The position numbers were made by a program, and so were the translations under genes. From NCBI GenBank assembly GCA_024707385.1, contig JANPZW010000013.1, positions 379,465-443,464 on the forward strand: a DNA stretch of 64,000 nucleotides, read 5' to 3'. Below are positions 27,884 to 40,446 of the stretch, in pieces. The number at the start of each line of letters is the position of its first letter. Within the stretch, counting starts at the first letter, position 1. The notes beneath the pieces were generated by a model. It saw only the letters and a program-made list of their open reading frames with translations, searched no databases and was not told the origin of the DNA. The DNA is from Cellvibrionaceae bacterium. Its GTDB lineage: Bacteria; Pseudomonadota; Gammaproteobacteria; Pseudomonadales; Cellvibrionaceae.

Positions 27884-28303
27884 TGCCGCCGCGGAATATT
27901 TTCACTTACGGCTCGCTCATGTTTGCCGATGTCTGGCAAAACATTGTCAAACAACCCTACGAAAGCTGCACCGCCCTGCTCGACGGATTTCGCCGCACCT
28001 GTATACACGACGATAACTATCCCGTGTTACTGCCGCGGGCGGGACAGAAAAAATCTTGCGGGAGTTGTGTATTTTTCGGTAACCAGCCAGGACATCACCA
28101 GACTCGACAAATTCGAAGGTGAGTATTACTTCCGCCGCCGGGTTTATCCGACGCTTCAGCTGGACGGACAAACCAAAGCCATCGAAGCCGACCTCTACCT
28201 ACTCAAACCCAAATACGCCCACCTCGCTTCTACGCGGCCGTGGGACCCGGAAATATTTGAAGCACGTGAACTCAGGCACTTCCTCCGGACTTGCCTGCAG
28301 TAA
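27883..28303 (+). CDS. Gamma-glutamylcyclotransferase (AIG2-like); frame break at A6 28048-28053
   Basis: IFTYGSLM and RLDKFEGEYY motifs in two frames; TGATG overlap with the DUF3570 gene. Confidence 0.8.
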
Positions 28304-31460: not shown

Positions 31461-32721
31461 CTAAAGGAATATTACATACTTGGATATAAGAAACAAAAGG
31501 AGGCAACTGATAGGCACATTGATAGCTATGCATGCCAAATCAAGCCTAGCTGATATCGCTGGCTTAATAGCTATGACCAGAGCCAATACCGTCAAGTAAT
31601 ATCTTGGCTCTACCATAGGCAGAGGCACAAAAGTCATGACACCAAAGATGTAGACCATAAGCAGCAGGAGCTTATTTTCCGGTTTTGAGTCTTTCCAAAA
31701 GAAATAATAAGTAAATGCAGCACTAACCATGGGGATAAAAACGAGGAGTTTTAACCATGCATATGAAAGAGTGTAGTGCAGAATAATATTTCGCAAGAAA
31801 AAAAGTGGTGTCTTGCGAGTTATAAGGGTGTGAATTAGAGTAGGTCAACGAGTAAATCAACAACCCTGCGACAACAAACAACCATATTAAAGGCTGCTCT
31901 TTCAGAAGTCGAAAAACTCTTAGCGTATAGAAAATATGGTACGGCAAAAAAATCACAAAACTAGTAAGCAGAAACATGTACAAGTTGGAAAGATTAAAAC
32001 TAACCTCGTGACTACCTGCATCACCGATTGCCACATTATCCCTCAGATAGAATATACCTGACGCAATAAGGCATACACCAACGAAAGGAGCAATCTTGCC
32101 AATTGCACGCCAATTTTCCCTATTCCGGTAATCGATAACATCTTTAAAGCTTCGCCGCTCTACTGAGCCGAAAAAAACATAGGCCCCACAAAATGCCACC
32201 CAAACCAGATTGGGTTGACGCGTTGCAATCGACAAAGCACCAACAAGTGCAGCTAGCCAATATTGCTTTTTCAGAGTCAAAAGAATCGCTGCAACAGCCA
32301 ACATGGCTGCCGGAATATCTGTATATAGAAGTGAGAAGAAAGGTAAAACTATAGGGCAAGTGAGAAAAAGTAAAACTCTGTAGTCATTCTTTTCAAACTT
32401 CAACTCCTTCGCAATCAAATATAAGAATGGAAGTATTGGCAAACAAATAATGAGGTGAGAGAGTCTTGCCAAATTATAAGAGTAAGTGCCAAATACTTTG
32501 AGCACCAAGGCTATGGCCATATGATAAACAGGAGGAACAGTTATATGCCAAACCTTCGGAATTCTCCCCTGAAAGAAGCCCATTATTTCGGGATTGTGGA
32601 ATCCTTCATCTGCCATCAACCCAGGCAAATTTGCCAAAATTGTGTAAGTAAAGGTCAGAACAATCACGCACATTAGCGCCAAATTAACTGGCTCTGAACC
32701 TGAATTTTTTGATAGATCCAT
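31461..32721 (-). CDS. ALG10/DIE2-like GT-C glucosyltransferase, copy B; frame break at A7 31798-31804
   Basis: DEGFHNPE, ITVPPVYH, LYTDIPA, RQPNLVW, HPY, VEPRYY; many transmembrane segments. Confidence 0.8.
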
Positions 32722-32783
32722 TTTACAACCTTTCTCGCTTGACAAGCATTCTCTATATGGTGAGCACCTAAACCCCAAAAAGA

Positions 32784-34069
32784 TCAAATGAAAATAATGG
32801 AATTAGATATAAGAAACAGCAATAATCCACTCAAAGGGATATACATAAAAAGGCAGCCCAAATCAAGATCTGACCTCAAACTGGGTCTGCTAACTGCGAT
32901 TAGGGCCAAAGCAGTAAGGTAATACCTTGGCTCCACCATAGGCAAAGGCACAAACGAAATTAGACCAAACACATAAATCAACAGCAAAGATGTTTTATCA
33001 GATGCCTTTGAATCCTTCCAAAAGAAGTAGTATGTAAACGCAGAGATTGCCATAGGCATAAACACCAGAAACTTCAACCACGTAATCGTCACGGTGTAAT
33101 GCAATACTACATTCCGATAATAATGCGCCAATCCAATTGTATTGTAGGGATGCGAATTGGAATAAGTGAACGCATAAACAACTAGCCCCAAAAACAGCAA
33201 GACCCATACCGCATAACTATTTGAAAGACATCGAATGATCCTAGGAAAATAAACCACGTGATACGGCAGGAAAAAAAGGAAGCTAAGCAAGAGAAACATG
33301 TAAAGATTGGAAAGGTTCAGTGTTACCTGATGCATTGAGGTATCACCTACGGCAACATTTTTCCTCAAATAGAATACGAACAATGCCGTCACGATGACCA
33401 AACCGTAGGGGGCAACCCTGGGCAACAGCCTGAAAACCTCGGGACCACGCAAGCTCAGAGGATTTCTCCAGCCGTCGCGCATAAAAAAATCCGCCAAGAC
33501 GAAGGAGGCACAAAAAGCCACCCAAATTACATTGGGCTGCCTCATCGCTATTGCCACAGCACCAGCCAAACTCGCCAAGATATATCTTTTTTTAACTGTG
33601 AACAAAAAAGAAAGGCTCACCAAAAGCAGTGCCGGGATATCCGTATAAAGAATTGAGAAGAAAGGCAAGACTATCGGCATAGTTAAAAAAAGCAGTACTC
33701 GATAGTCATTATTTTTATGCTCAAAGTGCCGACTGATCATATACAGAACAGGCACTAAAAGGCTGCACACCAGCAAATGAACAAATCTGGCCAATTCAGT
33801 AGAAAAAAAAAACCAAATATCTTTAGCAGTGCGGCAATAAGAGCGTGATATGTGGGCGGAACAGTAATATGCTCTGACGGTGTGAAATGCCCATGAAAAA
33901 AAGCCCAGATCTGGGGATTATGAAAACCCTCATCCGCAACCACCGTTTTAATATGCGAAAGCACCGTATATGTAAAAGCTAAAACAACAAACGAAATTAT
34001 TACCAGATTAACCAGTTCATAATTATACTTTTTGGTATTTTCCACCACCAACCTCGAAATCTTCGACAT
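32784..34069 (-). CDS. ALG10/DIE2-like GT-C glucosyltransferase, copy A; frame break at A10 33803-33812
   Basis: DEGFHNPQ, ITVPPTYH, LYTDIPA, RQPNVIW, HPY..HY, VEPRYY. Confidence 0.8.
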
Positions 34070-34254
34070 TTAAAATTTATTCTTTAAAGCTAAAAGAGTC
34101 ATTGGCGCAATCTCACTAAAACCCCAGCTCACCATCAACCCACAGCTGGAATTAACTCACTGTCCTGTGATTTCCGACTCACACCACCTACTAGAAACCA
34201 CTTCAAAAAGCCATGCCTGACTAATTCTTGAGATGCCCCCTAGCATGACCCCCA

Positions 34255-35169
34255 TTAAGACTTGTAAAGCTGCAAGTTTTTACAAAATTGTTCATAGATG
34301 GAAGAATTGCCACCAACACTTTCACAGAACTGAAGTGTGTGACTCAGCTGGGATGGATTGCGCGGACCAATTATCAGCCCATGCAAATGTGGGTTAGTGA
34401 CGGCAAGAGCAAGCGAGAACTCAACCACACTGCTCAACTGAAGCTTAACATTCTTATTCTGGGCGATATAGTTTGAGATTCTATCGACAAGCTCTTCAGG
34501 TACGGGTATTCCTCTCAAAGTAACTGATGCCTGGGCGTTATCCTCCAACTTTTTGACCCCACCCATATTAACGCCATATGCAAAATACTTAGCGCTGGGA
34601 AATCTCTCGCTGTACACGACCCGTGACGAGCGCGTTAAAGGATTCTCTTTTACCTGGATCAACCAGCTTGACGCCAATTCAGGAGCCGCCGCCAAATAAA
34701 TTTCTGGCGATTTCACACCAGAAAAGCCGATGCCTAGCCCCCTGCTATTAATATCGGCCATAGCTCCGATCGTCTCTTTTATCGCACCAGCATCTGCTGC
34801 CCCCTGTTATCCCAATGCACCGAAATAGCCGACAAGTGGCCTTCGAATAAATCTCGAAGTCGTTGCTCATGCCGATAAATAGTTTTTGAGCTTAAATCAG
34901 AATCTGGCTTTCCGGTATTATCCAGAGAACCTATTTTGACTAAAATAGAAAGAGCGATTTGTGGATTCCGCTGACACCATTCGGCTAGCCACTTCATAGC
35001 TTTTCCGGAGTCTTCTGCAATGCCATTTATGGGATAGTTGGTGGCTACATCTATAGTTTTTCCGCCAGAAGACACAAAAGAATCCACCAACTCGAAGGCC
35101 ACCTTTTTTGTCAACTCCCCAAGCCCACAAAGCGGTCCCCAAAACTAGCGTTTTTTTTTCTTCACTCAT
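34255..35169 (-). CDS. Divergent aldo/keto reductase; frame breaks at T6 35104-35109 and C5 34800-34804
   Basis: LVLGTALWAW, IDVATNY, VHWD, GIGFSG, IIGPRNPSQL across three frames. Confidence 0.7.
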
Positions 35170-35908
35170 GAGCCGCATCCAAGACGCTATTTTTTAGCTT
35201 CGCCTTGAGAGCTCGCATAGCTTTTAGATATTCAATTGCCAGACGGCCTATTTTTACTTTTGAATCGGGATCATCCGTCCAAGTAACAGGAAGGTCCTCA
35301 ACTTTCATTTTAAGATGTTCCGCCACCACTAAGAGCTCTGTTGAAAAAAACCAACCATCATTGCATGCGCCGCGCCTCATCAGTTCCGGTAGGCAGCTTC
35401 TGCGAAGAAATTTGAACCCGCACATTCCATCCGTAAATTTGGTCCGAAACCATGTCTTTACGATCATGTTAAACGCTCGGCTCGTTACTTCACGAACAGG
35501 AGATCTACCGATCACCTTAGCCCCTCTAGCCAAGCGAGAGCCCGCGACCATATCGGCTTTTCGGGAAACAAGAATATCCAACGCCTCACCCAAATGTCGA
35601 AGATCAGTGGCCAAATCCAAATCCATGTATCCAACAATATCCGCACCCGATGCCCCCCAAGATGATTTAAGAGCCAAGCCAACGCCTCGCTTATCTAATC
35701 TTAGGTATTTTACATTGTGATACTGAGCCTCCAGCCGCCTAGCAATCTCCGGCGTTCGATCAGTCGAGCCATTATCTGCTATGACAAGATTTATATCCTC
35801 AAAGCGATTTAACTGAGCTTGGAAGTGTTCCAGCACTTTCAGAACCTGCTGCTCTAAAGTTCGCTCTTCATTAAGAACCGGAATTGTTACTTCTATTCTA
35901 TCGTTCAT
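35162..35908 (-). CDS. Polyprenyl-phosphate glycosyltransferase, dolichyl-phosphate beta-glucosyltransferase (ALG5)-like GT2
   Basis: IPVLNEE, DNGSTD, YMDLDL, GSR, DGMCGFK, WFFSTELL, LPVTW..DSKV. Confidence 0.8.
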   Translation of the reverse strand: MNDRIEVTIPVLNEERTLEQQVLKVLEHFQAQLNRFEDINLVIADNGSTDRTPEIARRLEAQYHNVKYLRLDKRGVGLALKSSWGASGADIVGYMDLDLATDLRHLGEALDILVSRKADMVAGSRLARGAKVIGRSPVREVTSRAFNMIVKTWFRTKFTDGMCGFKFLRRSCLPELMRRGACNDGWFFSTELLVVAEHLKMKVEDLPVTWTDDPDSKVKIGRLAIEYLKAMRALKAKLKNSVLDAAHE

Positions 35909-35919
35909 TGAAATTTTCC

Positions 35920-37069
35920 TTAGTTAATTATGGGTATAAAGTCTTCCCCATCTAACTTTTCATAAACATCATAAATGTTGTCGATTTTTCCACCGAGGAT
36001 GGAATAGCAGCCAAGCATTTCGGCATGAGCTTCAAAAAGAATTGGCCTACCATCGTCTCCTTCATTTTTAACGAGAATAGTCTTAACCTCAAAAAGAGAG
36101 TCGACATACTTTGCCGAAAAAAACAAAGGCATATAGCGCCCGACATCTCGAATCATCCGATCGACTCGTGTAGTCCTCGAGTACTGACTCAAAGCCGCAT
36201 AGGGGTTAATACCCTTGATATCCCCCCAGTTAGCATGCGGTGTGTAACGAACGTGAGATAGCGTATGCAAGTTGCGAGCAGGGAATGGCATAAAAGAAAA
36301 AAACGGGCCGTCCATCACGGTTACCCCAATGCCCCGAAGGGTGTCAGGCAGCTCCACTAAGGCCATTTCGGTGATTTCGTGTTTCAAGCCCGTCTTAATT
36401 TTAGGAAAGTCCCCTTCAATTTGATTTAAGCCGCTGTAAGTACAATTAAAAACATACCGAGTTTGCACGCACTCTTCGATACCCGCACCATCCGAAACTT
36501 TCACTCGATAACATTCCATATCCTTTTTGATAGCCTCAACTTTTGACTTTAGCCGAACCTCAACACCTTCTTTTTTTTAACGATTCCCAAGCCCACCGCG
36601 CGAGCAGCGATGTATCAAAAGCATACTCTTCAACCAAATACGAGGCTTCAATCAAGCGAGACTCAAAAAGACAATTATATTCTTGAGGCGCAGGAACCAG
36701 CTTAGCCCCCACCTCAAAACAAAATCGTTCAAATTGCTTGGCAGTGACTTTGGAGTTTTTCCGGGCAATAGCATATATTTTTGTAAAATCTTTTTTGACA
36801 GCATCCCGCCAATCCACCACAAAGCGAGGCATGTTGACACGACTGCGATACGCGGTGGTAAAGCTTCTGGGATAGTGGTAGCCGTTATGAACACGGGCCT
36901 GATTCGTGTAAGACGCCCTTTGCAAAATATCCTTTTCTTGCTCCACCAGCAGCACCGATTTCAGGCCTCTGACTTGCTTTAAGTATATAGCTATCGCGCA
37001 GCCATAGAACCCTCCGCCGATAACTACAGCGTCTAATCCTAACGAACGTCCGCTAGCCACGAGGTGCAC
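35920..37069 (-). CDS. FAD-dependent oxidoreductase (DAO-like fold); frame break at T8 36571-36578
   Basis: VIGGGFYG, ASYTNQARVHNGYHYPRS, GGKIDN at the C-terminus. Confidence 0.8.
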
Positions 37070-38053
37070 CTAATTTACTTGGGTCTTCGATATTCAATCT
37101 TTCTCTACGCTCTAACCTCGCACTCGTCAGCTCTTTCGCAATATGGTAGGACGGCCCAGTGGCGAACAAACTTAGCATATGCATAATATATTCACTCAAG
37201 ATTAAGAGCACGATTGAAACCAAAAAAAACATGCCGGATTGCTGCAGAGAGAGACTAGCCCAACCAGGTGTCACATTCTCCTTAAGGAAGCTAATAAATA
37301 ACACGTATATAGAATAGAGGACATTAGCCACCGACCCAAAAACGCATAACAGATTTATCAGACGCATTGGTGCGCGAGACGTTGAAATCAATAGCCGAAC
37401 CCCCTATTGAGCGCTTCACGCACGCTCTTTTTTTCCACCAACTCAACCGGAGCGCTATAGTCAAAATTAAATTTGGAAAAGCCCCCTGTTGCGGGCAATA
37501 ATCTGTATGAAAGCTCCGGGGAGGGATGACGCAGAATGAAGTTAACTACAGTACGACTCAAAAGACGACATAGAGGCACCTCTTTGGAAAGCTGAATACC
37601 ATTGAGGTATTTGTAGACCCTATCAAATCCAGCATAGGCTAGTTTATACGTTATACCCTGCGGTGGCTTGGTTAGGTTGTTCGCAAATACCACATCCACT
37701 CCTCTTACGGCGTGTTCCAGCATCTGCGGAGTTACCTCCAGATCATCCTGTAAAGGGTCGAATACACTGACAAAATCACCCAAGGCATTCTCCACTCCAA
37801 CCCAAGCAGCTGTATCACGATCCACTTCTTTTGTCAGGGAGTAAACCTGCAAATTTGGAAGGCCACCGGGAGCACAAAGCTCCTGAAGAACGAGCACGCT
37901 ATCATCGACCGAAGCATTATCGACAATAATAAGCTCATAATCTGCCACTATTTTCGAAACTTTCTCTGTCGCCTCAGATAGTATTTTCCTTAGATTTTCG
38001 GACTCATTCCTGACGATAAGCACTACTGAGAGAAACACTGGAAAATATGTCAT
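37053..38053 (-). CDS. GtrB/YfdH-like bactoprenol glycosyltransferase (GT2 plus two TM helices); frame break at C5 37400-37404
   Basis: SVVLIVRNE, IIVDNASVD; C-terminal helices with PGWAS..LLILSEYI. Confidence 0.75.
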
Positions 38054-38214
38054 TCATCACCAACCTTCTAAACCAAGGGTTCACACAATTCATTTTCAAT
38101 ATCCACACTCAACGACAAGAGCCGCTCTCCTGCTACAGAACTTACACTGCATCGCTTCGCAACACAACGCAACTCACATCTGTTCCTACTCGTTGGACAC
38201 GAAGCAGCCGCCAC

Positions 38215-38613
38215 TCATCCTCGATAGATCCAACATTTATGTAGAGTGTAGTTAACTATTAGCGTCACCAAAATGGCGACCAGCTGAGCAACTATATAGA
38301 GCTTTAAAATATGATTGACGGCTGAAAAAGTTAAAGTATTCGCAGTAATGCCTATAACACAAACCAAGGCAAATCTTGGTGCTGTCTCCGCATGCCGCTT
38401 GGTAGCCGAGGCCCCAAAGGTGAAGTAATAATTAGCGGAATAGTTATAAAAAGCAGAGATTAGGTAAGAAACTGCAGAAGCCACCACTGGGCGCAATATT
38501 TCCAGCTCTACGAAAAGCATCAAGAGAAACATCTGCAGCAAGGTCGCCGTACCACCTACAAACAGAAAACGAGTAACCCTGCTATGCCACAGACTCACGA
38601 CAAGAGAGAACAT
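38215..38613 (-). CDS. GtrA family flippase-like membrane protein
   Basis: RFLFVGGTAT, YNYSANYYFTF, NYTLHKCWIY; four hydrophobic helices. Confidence 0.88.
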   Translation of the reverse strand: MFSLVVSLWHSRVTRFLFVGGTATLLQMFLLMLFVELEILRPVVASAVSYLISAFYNYSANYYFTFGASATKRHAETAPRFALVCVIGITANTLTFSAVNHILKLYIVAQLVAILVTLIVNYTLHKCWIYRG

Positions 38614-38625
38614 AAAAAGCCTTTT

Positions 38626-40446
38626 TTATTCTAGTTTGGGTGGAGCCTGAGAGGCCACATCTTGCCCTAAAGAGTCTCGCATTACAGGCATTGAGCCCCT
38701 CCGTCCAGCCGCCATGAGCAACACCACCTGGGCAAGCAGTAAGCCCTCAAAAGGTTTTCTATATCTTCCTTCATTTACCGAAATAGGCAGCAAGCCTTGC
38801 ACAAGAATCCAAGATCCTATGATAACGGGTAGCATCCACTGCCCCCTCAATCTTCTCCTCCAACACACCAGCCATATCATTACGCCAACCGTGACTGGCG
38901 CCCAGATCCAGCGCATTACCGCGTTAGCTTGGTCTAAAATTCGAGCCATGTTGCTGTCTGGCCACGATGTGGCAAAAAACAGAAAAATCAGATTCTCTTT
39001 TGTAATCCACAGAAAGCGATCAAAATCCAACGCTACTGACTCGTAGGCTCTGTCCCAGTCTTCCTTGCCTTTATTGAAATCTACCGATACCACAACCCGC
39101 CCGGAACGCTGCGTTTTCCAATCACTAAACGGCGCAAATGGCTCAGCCCCAGTGGATGGTGACCCAAATATATGACCCCAGCTAGCCCCATCTTTTGCTG
39201 TATTCAGCAATATCTCCTTCTTTCCGGACATGCCATATATTGCTGCCAGATGCCCCATACCATGCGGAGCAAACTGATTGACCGCGTGATATGAGCGGTA
39301 AGTAAGCGGCCCCAAAATGAGCGCCAGCAATGCGGTGGAGATCAAAGCCTTTTTAACTTTTTCCGGCTGGAGAACCCAAAGCCAGGTGCAACAGATGGCT
39401 GCAAAAGGTATAGCAACTCCACGAGTGAGCCCGGCGGCAATCCAAATGACAACCATCAGGCCGAATGCGGTAGCGCTTCTCTTGCGGCGCGCTCTCCACG
39501 TAGCCCATAAAGCAGCACCAAGCAAGGGCAGAAAAAGTGTTTCCTGCATAAAATAGCTGTATATGGAAATCCAAGAAGGCAAAAGCGCAAGGGCGGCCCA
39601 CCCCAAAAGTGCCAGTGTTTTTGAAGATTGCAGCTCTCGGAAGAAACGATACCAAATCCACGGCGTGACGATGGAAAGAAAGCTCGTGTAAAAAGCCACC
39701 AATACGGGGATTTTTAAAGTGAGCTTGGCAAGAGCACTGATATACAGCTGATACATGATCGGGTCTGTCATCGTCATGAGATCGACCCGCAAAACGTCAA
39801 TTCCTGCCTCCCAATGCCGTTGCGCATCACTCCAAATATGAGCTACTGGGTTGTAGGTGAAAACAGTCCAGATTCGTATACCTACTCCTGCAGCTATCAA
39901 TACATAAAACAACCTGTGCAGGTAAGGTACCGACCTTTGACGCCATGCATTATTTGCCAGCAAGAGCAAGAAAAACGTCCAACACCCTACGGCAATCCAG
40001 GCTCGATAAGCAGACCCCATGCGAATCGATAACCCCATATCCCCGCCATAGTCTGCCACTACGATTTCGAGCTTATTGCCGCCCAACCGAAGATGCCGTG
40101 AGAAGTCCATCAGCACTCCCTGTCTGAAATCTCCCAAGGCTTCTTGCGAATAATTGGTCAGGTCAAGTATTTCATCATTGATTTTTATACTGAGAATCTC
40201 ATTATCCGGCGTAATCCTGAATATCGAGGATGAGAGCAGTCGTTTCTCCAGGTAGCCGCTATAAATATATGTCTGCGGCCCTATACCACCCCGCAAGAGC
40301 GGCAATCGAATAGCCTCTTCTCGACCACTTTCATGGCGCAGCGTGAAATCACTCAACCGGAACTGAAGTGAATAGGTGATATATGCCAGCAGCAACCCGC
40401 AGAATAAGAATAACGCCGCTTTAATTTGCGCCGACCAGCCTTTCAT
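38626..40446 (-). CDS. Polytopic GT-C-like membrane protein with N-terminal extracytoplasmic beta-sandwich domain
   Basis: N-terminal TM, about 110-aa soluble domain (RITPDNEILSIKIND), loop WSDAQRH, about 10 more TM segments, EGRY motif near the C-terminus. Confidence 0.6.
   Translation of the reverse strand: MKGWSAQIKAALFLFCGLLLAYITYSLQFRLSDFTLRHESGREEAIRLPLLRGGIGPQTYIYSGYLEKRLLSSSIFRITPDNEILSIKINDEILDLTNYSQEALGDFRQGVLMDFSRHLRLGGNKLEIVVADYGGDMGLSIRMGSAYRAWIAVGCWTFFLLLLANNAWRQRSVPYLHRLFYVLIAAGVGIRIWTVFTYNPVAHIWSDAQRHWEAGIDVLRVDLMTMTDPIMYQLYISALAKLTLKIPVLVAFYTSFLSIVTPWIWYRFFRELQSSKTLALLGWAALALLPSWISIYSYFMQETLFLPLLGAALWATWRARRKRSATAFGLMVVIWIAAGLTRGVAIPFAAICCTWLWVLQPEKVKKALISTALLALILGPLTYRSYHAVNQFAPHGMGHLAAIYGMSGKKEILLNTAKDGASWGHIFGSPSTGAEPFAPFSDWKTQRSGRVVVSVDFNKGKEDWDRAYESVALDFDRFLWITKENLIFLFFATSWPDSNMARILDQANAVMRWIWAPVTVGVMIWLVCWRRRLRGQWMLPVIIGSWILVQGLLPISVNEGRYRKPFEGLLLAQVVLLMAAGRRGSMPVMRDSLGQDVASQAPPKLE

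Follow-up and report, generated by a model that had tools for sequence, protein, structure and literature searches.

Can a bacterium carry enzymes of the ALG10 family, and in what kind of pathway would they work there? ALG10/DIE2 is the eukaryotic Dol-P-Glc (dolichyl phosphate glucose):Glc2Man9GlcNAc2-PP-Dol alpha-1,2-glucosyltransferase, which adds the last glucose to the N-glycan precursor. The question is raised by a 64,000-nucleotide (nt) stretch of DNA from a Cellvibrionaceae bacterium, a marine-type gammaproteobacterium (assembly GCA_024707385.1, contig JANPZW010000013.1, positions 379,465 to 443,464 of the forward strand), hereafter called the window, to which all coordinates below refer. 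A preliminary interpretation made from the letters alone (the sequence-only reading) had described positions 31461-35908 as a eukaryote-like glucosylation module, with an ALG5-like glycosyltransferase of family GT2 and two tandem ALG10-like proteins encoded in one operon. Here, we report that the two tandem proteins belong to the ALG10 family and are encoded in a run of eight co-directional genes on the minus strand (31461-40446). In our view, this locus is probably (with a probability of about 0.62) a Gtr-like lipid-linked glycosylation system that uses ALG10-family glycosyltransferases of the GT-C class.

ALG10-family identity of the two paralogs

The genes of ALG10-like A (32784-34045, minus strand) and ALG10-like B (31461-32721, minus strand) each encode a GT-C protein of 419 amino acids (aa) when intact; the intact A protein is the database entry P0001. 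Both proteins gave full-length matches to the DIE2/ALG10 family PF04922, whose curated cut-off is 27 bits: A scored 108.2 bits (E = 7.6e-31, hidden Markov model (HMM) positions 4-388 of 391) and B scored 96.5 bits (E = 2.7e-27, HMM positions 5-386 of 391). The bacterial GT-C families of the PMT/ArnT type, which had been considered as the competing assignment, trail ALG10 by about 85 bits, and the best of them, PMT_2, reached 23 bits, under its own cut-off. All motifs that had been listed for the two paralogs of about 420 aa are present in both and in the same order (ADEGFHNP, ITVPP.YH, YTD, RQPN..W, HPY, and EPRYY), and the loop motifs shared with eukaryotic ALG10 follow the same sequence (DE.FH, IT.PP, YTD, RQ.N..W, GD..H, HP(Y/F), and EPRYY).

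Direct comparison with yeast ALG10 gave the same picture. By BLASTP, A and the yeast protein share 23% identity across 405 aa (E = 1e-12) in an alignment where all motifs line up, and hhalign matched the bacterial profile to 12 yeast ALG10 proteins with a probability of 99.8% (E = 1.3e-28, 366 columns). A profile of 24 prokaryotic homologs (A1), when searched against 5.8 billion sequences, matched the yeast protein P0054 at E = 9.5e-26. No named eukaryotic ALG10 was reached directly in this word-index search; P0054 was identified by its score of 360 bits to PF04922, and its relatives are named ALG10/GT59 in Candida, Scheffersomyces, Wickerhamomyces, and other yeasts. The proposed family assignment is thus upheld by the Pfam, BLASTP, and hhalign results. 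Across the 24 prokaryotic sequences, D38, E39, H42, Y133, T134, D135, R168, Q169, W174, H298, Y300, N301, E371, R373, and Y374 (numbering of A) are invariant. The aligned invariant residues of the 12 yeast proteins are D69, E70, H73, Y170, T171, R211, Q212, W217, H349, E441, R443, and Y444, with D172 and F351 shared by at least 90% of these proteins.

Judging from these scores, the bacterial ALG10-like proteins are a divergent subfamily and not orthologs of yeast ALG10, because they reach only 63-145 bits to PF04922 (96-108 bits for the two window proteins) compared with 360 for the yeast protein. In addition, A is shorter, with 419 aa versus about 440-515 aa in the yeasts listed. In CAZy, GT59 enzymes are inverting and use lipid-phosphate-monosaccharide donors (PMC10920833), and a donor of this type would be expected for A and B from their family membership.

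The AlphaFold2 (AF2) model of A (predicted local distance difference test (pLDDT) 90.2, predicted template modeling score (pTM) 0.90) is all-helical and polytopic. Its top Foldseek matches were all GT-C enzymes with TM-scores of 0.35-0.54, including ArnT, Pmt4, ALG12, AglB/PglB/STT3, AftB, ALG3, and ALG6. A is therefore predicted to have a polytopic GT-C fold and, like eukaryotic ALG10, no large soluble domain; B has about 11 hydrophobic segments. A PDB sequence search with the family profile retrieved neither ALG10 nor any other meaningful match, and the PDB copy searched holds no ALG10 structure. NCBIfam contains no model for ALG10-like proteins and gave only a weak match to AZOBR_p60025 (24 bits).

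In a maximum-likelihood tree, A-type and B-type sequences form two sister clades (support 94/89 and 100/100), and the joint clade (100/100) is nested among single-copy Cellvibrionaceae sequences. This topology points to one duplication, with both copies kept in several lineages.

Gene neighborhoods of ALG10-like genes

The island is chromosomal and lies between sahR and a response-regulator gene. Its first gene encodes a 606-aa polytopic membrane protein (38626-40446), which is followed on the same minus strand by genes for a GtrA-family small membrane protein (132-aa open reading frame (ORF), 38215-38613; PF04138, 81 bits; presumed flippase), a GtrB/ArnC-type GT2 of 333 aa when intact (37053-38053), a DAO-family flavin adenine dinucleotide (FAD)-dependent oxidoreductase of 379 aa when intact (35920-37060; PF01266, 67.6 bits), a soluble 248-aa GT2 whose gene is unbroken in the window (35162-35908), an aldo-keto reductase (AKR) of 304 aa when intact (34255-35169; PF00248, 46.5 bits on the intact protein), and finally A and B. 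The GtrA and GT2 genes alongside A and B agree with the polyprenyl-phosphate-sugar context that had been anticipated. The AKR gene falls inside the interval covered by the sequence-only reading, which did not mention it.

Two further genomic contexts (L037 and L039) contain the whole eight-gene set at 62-64% identity, and in both the ALG10 pair is inverted relative to the other six genes. This recurrence despite inversion argues for functional linkage without obligatory co-transcription. The idea of a single operon accordingly survives only in part: it is plausible in the window, where all genes lie on the same strand, but co-transcription is not conserved, because in L037 and L039 the pair and the remaining six genes point toward each other. 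A 209-nt gap precedes the gene of A, and a promoter/terminator scan, which gave fewer sites than in shuffled sequence, was uninformative on transcription units.

More distant loci show related arrangements. In two Teredinibacter-type genomes and a Thiodiazotropha metagenome-assembled genome (MAG), the gene order is ALG10-like, DUF2298 membrane protein, GtrB-like GT2, and GtrA, and a cut Desulfobacteraceae contig has the first three of these. In Cellvibrionaceae MAGs, the surroundings of the ALG10-like gene include GtrA, a GtrB-like GT2, and a homolog 52% identical to the 606-aa protein, by sahR as in the window. More generally, the 606-aa protein is conserved at 52-64% identity beside GtrA and GT2 in relatives. 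We rejected the notion that this protein and the DUF2298 protein of Teredinibacter form one partner family, since they are unrelated by BLASTP. Among 24 genome loci with ALG10-like genes (see below), eight have a GtrB-like GT2 within 8 kb. Natural fusions were also detected in metagenomes, namely a GT2-ALG10 protein of 659 aa (P0153) and a YfhO-ALG10 protein of 1223 aa (P0061). Further ALG10-like proteins of 551-768 aa have N-terminal extensions without a Pfam family. In Teredinibacter waterburyi (L014, 3574-13022), the ALG10-like/DUF2298/GtrB/GtrA operon directly follows genes for a GH94 phosphorylase and an MFS_2 sugar transporter, a neighborhood that may hint at a link to glucans or may be a coincidence.

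Close relatives differ in the transferase genes of this locus. In the same-genus genome G003, the segment from sahR to the response regulator (L040, C4:209500-221000) retains the 606-aa protein at 64% identity, GtrA at 63%, and a GT2 at 25%. At the position of the window's redox and GT2 genes and ALG10 pair, it encodes an NPCBM-domain protein and a PMT/STT3-like GT-C. The latter GT-C appears as ORFs of 168 and 379 aa, which may be one split gene. Another genome of the genus, G004, has a different ALG10-like allele (44-47% identity) adjoining the same response regulator. The slot is thus variable, and the ALG10 pair fills it in the manner of the specificity-determining transferase ('GtrC') of Gtr-type systems.

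Two GT2 enzymes and a second donor cassette

Where ALG10-like genes occur elsewhere, the GT2 found again next to them is not the 248-aa protein but the GtrB/ArnC-like GT2. The latter matched GtrB sll0501 of Synechocystis (5ekp) at E = 3e-12 over residues 6-305, and ArnC structures were matched too. Its NCBIfam matches were full-length, with PgfS best (62 bits) and ArnC at 47.7 bits. With two transmembrane segments at 236-294, that is, two C-terminal helices, the 333-aa protein has by sequence the architecture of GtrB/ArnC. The two GT2 proteins are not close paralogs.

The 248-aa GT2 had been proposed as the ALG5 counterpart. All its listed motifs were found, namely DGMCGFK, WFFSTELL, and PVTWTDDPDSKV, and PF00535 matched with 74.8 bits. 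Yeast Alg5 has an N-terminal transmembrane segment; in the 248-aa protein, no hydrophobic or transmembrane segment was found, and its C-terminal helix is amphipathic. The best solved relative is the Dol-P-Man (dolichyl phosphate mannose) synthase of Pyrococcus (5mlz, E = 3.1e-9, residues 4-231). Among NCBIfam models, AglJ came first, followed by PgfS, a haloarchaeal Dol-P-hexose transferase, PpgS, and ArnC, all far under their cut-offs. These best matches fall on the Dpm side (Pyrococcus synthase and AglJ) with low scores of 40-46 bits, in a comparison that did not include an ALG5 sequence. AglJ was placed in a clade with Dpm and not with Alg5 by Lombard (2016, PMC4973528), who also described the human Dpm1 type as free of transmembrane segments (PMC4973528), a type that the 248-aa GT2 resembles. 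Of the ALG5 proposal, the GT2 domain of the polyprenyl-phosphate-sugar-synthase type therefore stands, whereas a protein that has no transmembrane segment and seems to lean toward Dpm and AglJ does not look specifically like ALG5; the 248-aa GT2 looks like a candidate polyprenyl-phosphate hexose synthase similar to Dpm1/AglJ.

The proposed pairing of this enzyme with ALG10-type transferases was not borne out beyond the window's own clade. When metagenomes were scanned with three aligned copies of the 248-aa GT2, 303 relatives were obtained, for which 80 loci (L041-L120) were kept, 51 of them at least 6 kb long. In these 51, a FAD oxidoreductase is adjacent in 43, an AKR in 42, and a GtrB-like GT2 in 36, and no ALG10-like gene was found in any of the 80 loci with flanks of up to 8 kb. 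Moreover, the 248-aa GT2 is absent from the two relatives that carry ALG10-like genes. In two cassette loci examined, GtrA comes next and Wzm/Wzt-type polysaccharide ATP-binding cassette (ABC) transporter genes stand alongside. Ten polytopic neighbors of the cassette were compared with Pfam: one is a GtrII-family GT-C, one is a YfhO-family GT-C, two have weak matches to carbohydrate-binding-type domains, and six have no Pfam family. Because the FAD, AKR, and GtrB-like partners recur, ALG10-like genes are lacking from all 80 loci, and the GT-C neighbors are diverse, the 248-aa GT2 belongs to a distinct, widespread donor cassette whose GT-C partners are of many kinds. A literature search for a GT2-FAD-AKR-GtrA cassette found no paper, and this second donor cassette of two GT2s, a flavoenzyme, and an AKR, which is more widespread, was brought out by the present analysis.

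Proposed mechanism and alternatives

In the Gtr systems of Shigella and Salmonella phages, a GtrA flippase, the GtrB synthase of undecaprenyl phosphate glucose, and a serotype-specific GT-C of the GtrC/GtrII type carry out O-antigen glucosylation. The window likewise has a GtrA-family gene, a GT2 with GtrB architecture, and polytopic GT-Cs side by side; its transferase slot varies between close relatives, and at other loci related donor cassettes have a GtrII-family GT-C as partner. Unlike in the known systems, the transferases are of the ALG10 family and not of known GtrC families, and the unit also includes a FAD oxidoreductase, an AKR, and a second GT2 that is soluble, with as many as three putative GT-Cs. 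No prophage genes were noticed near the chromosomal island, although no search aimed at phage genes was made. A similar logic is found in the CsbB/YfhO systems of Firmicutes teichoic acids, where a GT-C working outside the membrane transfers the C55-P-sugar that a GT2 has made. The fusion of YfhO with an ALG10-like protein mentioned above recalls this combination of a GT2 and an external GT-C, while the window has another GT-C family and a Gram-negative host.

Sugars are also known to be modified on the lipid carrier, as in the ArnC-ArnD-ArnE/F-ArnT pathway (lipid A 4-amino-4-deoxy-L-arabinose, Ara4N) and in mycobacteria with DprE1/DprE2 and GT-C arabinosyltransferases. The order of GT2 loading, modification, flipping, and GT-C transfer would be the same in the window, where oxidase and reductase genes lie between transferase genes with overlapping stop and start codons: the FAD oxidoreductase gene shares 8 nt with the upstream 333-aa GT2 gene, and the AKR gene shares 8 nt with the upstream 248-aa GT2 gene. 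The enzymes themselves are different. DprE1 is of the vanillyl-alcohol-oxidase type, DprE2 is a short-chain dehydrogenase, and ArnD is a deformylase, whereas the window has a DAO-family FAD enzyme and an AKR that are unrelated to any of the three. That this redox pair acts on a lipid-linked substrate we infer purely by analogy.

On the reading that we favor, the locus is a Gtr-type (GtrA/GtrB/GtrC-like) periplasmic glycosylation system with the ALG10-family pair as its sugar-transferring GT-C enzymes. At the cytoplasmic face, the 333-aa GtrB/ArnC-like GT2 would load a sugar derived from a nucleotide sugar onto undecaprenyl phosphate, and the soluble Dpm1-like GT2 would probably load the same carrier. 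The FAD oxidoreductase and AKR, translationally coupled to the GT2 genes, may then oxidize and re-reduce the lipid-linked sugar, which is the weakest step of the scheme. GtrA would move the lipid-linked sugar to the periplasmic face, where A and B, and perhaps the 606-aa protein, would each transfer a sugar with inversion to a surface glycan, most likely O-antigen or another polysaccharide. A and B may act at different positions or at successive steps, and an Asp-Glu pair in the first periplasmic loop, invariant across the family, would serve as the catalytic base. As for the capping of a surface or protein glycan that had been suggested earlier, the terms 'alpha-1,2-linked' and 'glucose' appear to be carried over from the eukaryotic enzyme by analogy.

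The 606-aa protein is a possible third GT-C transferase by sequence. It has eight or more hydrophobic segments and a PMT_2 match of 18 bits (E = 0.0036), which is under the cut-off, and a PDB sequence search gave no match.

Several points weigh against this interpretation. For the donor sugar, the linkage, and the acceptor, the scheme depends on inference, and the distance of bacterial members from the yeast enzyme (63-145 versus 360 bits) means that specificity may differ widely. No O-antigen ligase, polymerase, or ABC-transporter genes lie next to the island in the window. The GT-C status of the 606-aa protein depends on the sub-threshold PMT_2 match, and the flanks of 16 of the 24 genome loci contain no GtrB-like gene, although some of these contigs are short and the phmmer queries were gammaproteobacterial. 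In addition, the scheme does not account for the presence of two GT2 enzymes, and lipid-linked redox remodeling is only an analogy, because the DAO-family FAD enzyme and the AKR are unrelated to DprE1/DprE2 and gave uninformative matches in PDB searches.

The same chemistry might instead serve another acceptor, such as periplasmic, outer-membrane, or pilus proteins, a periplasmic glucan, or lipid A-core. The closest structural relatives of A include the protein-modifying Pmt4, PglB, and AglB and the lipid A-modifying ArnT, and PgfS, the best NCBIfam match of the 333-aa GT2, belongs to a streptococcal protein-glycosylation system. Moreover, the island is not within a polysaccharide gene cluster, and the Teredinibacter operon adjoins a GH94 phosphorylase and a sugar transporter. 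We nevertheless regard such an acceptor as rather unlikely: the 419-aa proteins lack the periplasmic soluble domain that binds peptide acceptors in PglB, AglB, and PMTs, a related donor cassette stands beside Wzm/Wzt genes in other loci, and eukaryotic ALG10 acts on a lipid-linked glycan.

A more specific proposal is that the unit of GtrB-like GT2, FAD oxidoreductase, soluble GT2, AKR, and GtrA makes a rare sugar by redox chemistry on undecaprenyl phosphate, which the ALG10-family pair then delivers to a surface glycan. This would follow the logic of DprE1/DprE2 with unrelated enzymes, and it seems doubtful to us. If true, it would offer the structurally unsolved ALG10 family a tractable bacterial model, a 419-aa protein predicted by AF2 with high confidence, as well as a prokaryotic context for the origin of ALG10. 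The Gtr-type interpretation has implications of its own. With ALG10-type proteins at the variable transferase position, it provides an interpretable setting that yields a biochemical hypothesis for the whole prokaryotic branch, and the compact 419-aa bacterial protein could serve for a first structure of the family.

Integrity of the island genes

In the window assembly, five of the eight island genes are broken at homopolymer runs. A T10 run at 33803-33812 has two surplus T that split the gene of A, and a T7 run at 31798-31804 has one that splits the gene of B. The AKR gene has two compensating homopolymer indels near 35109 and 34804, the FAD oxidoreductase gene is split by an extra A near 36578, and loss of a G near 37404 splits the 333-aa GT2 gene. 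Phase variation of surface-glycan transferase genes classically works through homopolymer tracts, and such breaks in both ALG10-like genes and three neighbors could mean that the paralogs are decaying pseudogenes or phase-variable genes turned off by slippage in T runs.

We consider this highly improbable. The intact 419-aa homolog P0001 is 99% identical, and its look-up gave four independent short-read contigs (L006-L009) that contain the same DNA with all genes whole, both 419-aa proteins included. The longest contig (L006, 13.4 kb) differs from the window by no substitution and nine indels, and the three shorter ones by no substitution and 8-9 indels each. All nine indels of L006 (window positions 28053, 30495, 31449, 31804, 33812, 34804, 35109, 36578, and 37404) are length changes of A, T, G, or C homopolymers in coding as well as non-coding DNA, the signature of homopolymer miscalls. 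The four short-read assemblies agree on T8 and T6 runs where the window has T10 and T7, and both paralogs are conserved across lineages. Since the short-read contigs are intact, with no substitutions and homopolymer-only indels, the frameshifts are assembly errors, and the pseudogene and phase-variation readings were rejected. The source genome assembly has 15 contigs and a completeness of 90.9%, and its further split genes are probably artifacts too.

Distribution and relation to eukaryotic ALG10

The ALG10-like family is patchy, being present in 2 of 40 relatives and in none of 400 genomes from a class-wide sample. When 185,579 species representatives were scanned with a single pattern, the 24 loci mentioned above were obtained; they belong to Cellvibrionaceae, Marinagarivorans, Teredinibacter, Halioglobus, Thiodiazotropha, Acidobacteriota, Chloroflexota, Betaproteobacteria, deltaproteobacterial MAGs, and a Woesearchaeota MAG; named prokaryotic members also include Myxococcales. 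An exhaustive HMMER search of 1.84 billion cluster representatives resulted in 3347 matches at E<=1e-3 and 872 at E<=1e-30, and the best 150 are nearly all of prokaryotic size (372-485 aa). By sequence, the prokaryotic ALG10 branch is large and diverse.

Papers on the origin of N-glycosylation treat the ALG transferases of the endoplasmic reticulum lumen, including ALG10, as eukaryotic inventions with no prokaryotic homologs (PMC4973528; bioRxiv 10.1101/2024.10.30.621208). The statement in the sequence-only reading that ALG10 is mainly eukaryotic reflects such searchable papers and is contradicted by the 872 clusters at E<=1e-30 and by database names. RefSeq calls the Teredinibacter turnerae homologs (P0206 and its cluster mates) Dol-P-Glc:Glc(2)Man(9)GlcNAc(2)-PP-Dol alpha-1,2-glucosyltransferase, and other prokaryotic homologs are named 'alpha-1,2-glucosyltransferase' by the Joint Genome Institute (JGI). 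These names are automatic and propagating over-annotations, because a dolichol-linked Glc2Man9GlcNAc2 acceptor is not expected in bacteria. For the same reason, as neither dolichol nor this acceptor is expected in the Cellvibrionaceae bacterium, its donor lipid and acceptor must differ from those of eukaryotic ALG10; a retained tandem pair linked to GtrA/GtrB-type genes is a further difference. No characterized bacterial GT59/ALG10 enzyme was found in a literature search, which leaves the window locus as a member of a large, diverse, and uncharacterized prokaryotic branch of a family held to be eukaryote-only in papers.

In a FastTree phylogeny of 200 sequences, the 12 yeast ALG10 proteins group as one clade on a long stem and branch outside the entire set of 188 prokaryote-type sequences; the eukaryotes in it are Saccharomycotina only and it has no outgroup, so that the direction of descent is not readable from it. 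A and B are 4.6-4.8 substitutions per site away from yeast, compared with a prokaryotic median of 4.18. On the origin of ALG10, which the sequence-only reading had raised, the window has no special bearing: it is one more member of the branch, farther from yeast than the median prokaryote, and its value is tempered by this distance and by the existing annotation of such proteins in databases. A recent transfer from a eukaryote, or eukaryotic contamination, for which the patchy distribution and the low G+C content of the island (41-49% versus 55-60% in the flanks) might be quoted, is extremely improbable and was rejected, given only 23% identity of A to yeast ALG10, nearest relatives that are all prokaryote-sized and in bacterial contexts with GtrA/GtrB, 872 clusters with named members from many bacterial groups and a Woesearchaeota MAG, the position of the yeast clade in the tree, and an equally low G+C content at the syntenic locus of the sister species.

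Additional observations on gene calls

Some of the indels lie outside the island genes and alter neighboring calls. The start of the response-regulator gene is affected (211-aa ORF in the window versus a 192-aa call), as is a GGACT-family gene (126 aa in the window versus 139 aa). On the short-read contigs, the GtrA gene is called with 108 aa, a call that probably starts too late, because the PF04138 match begins at residue 15 of the 132-aa ORF.

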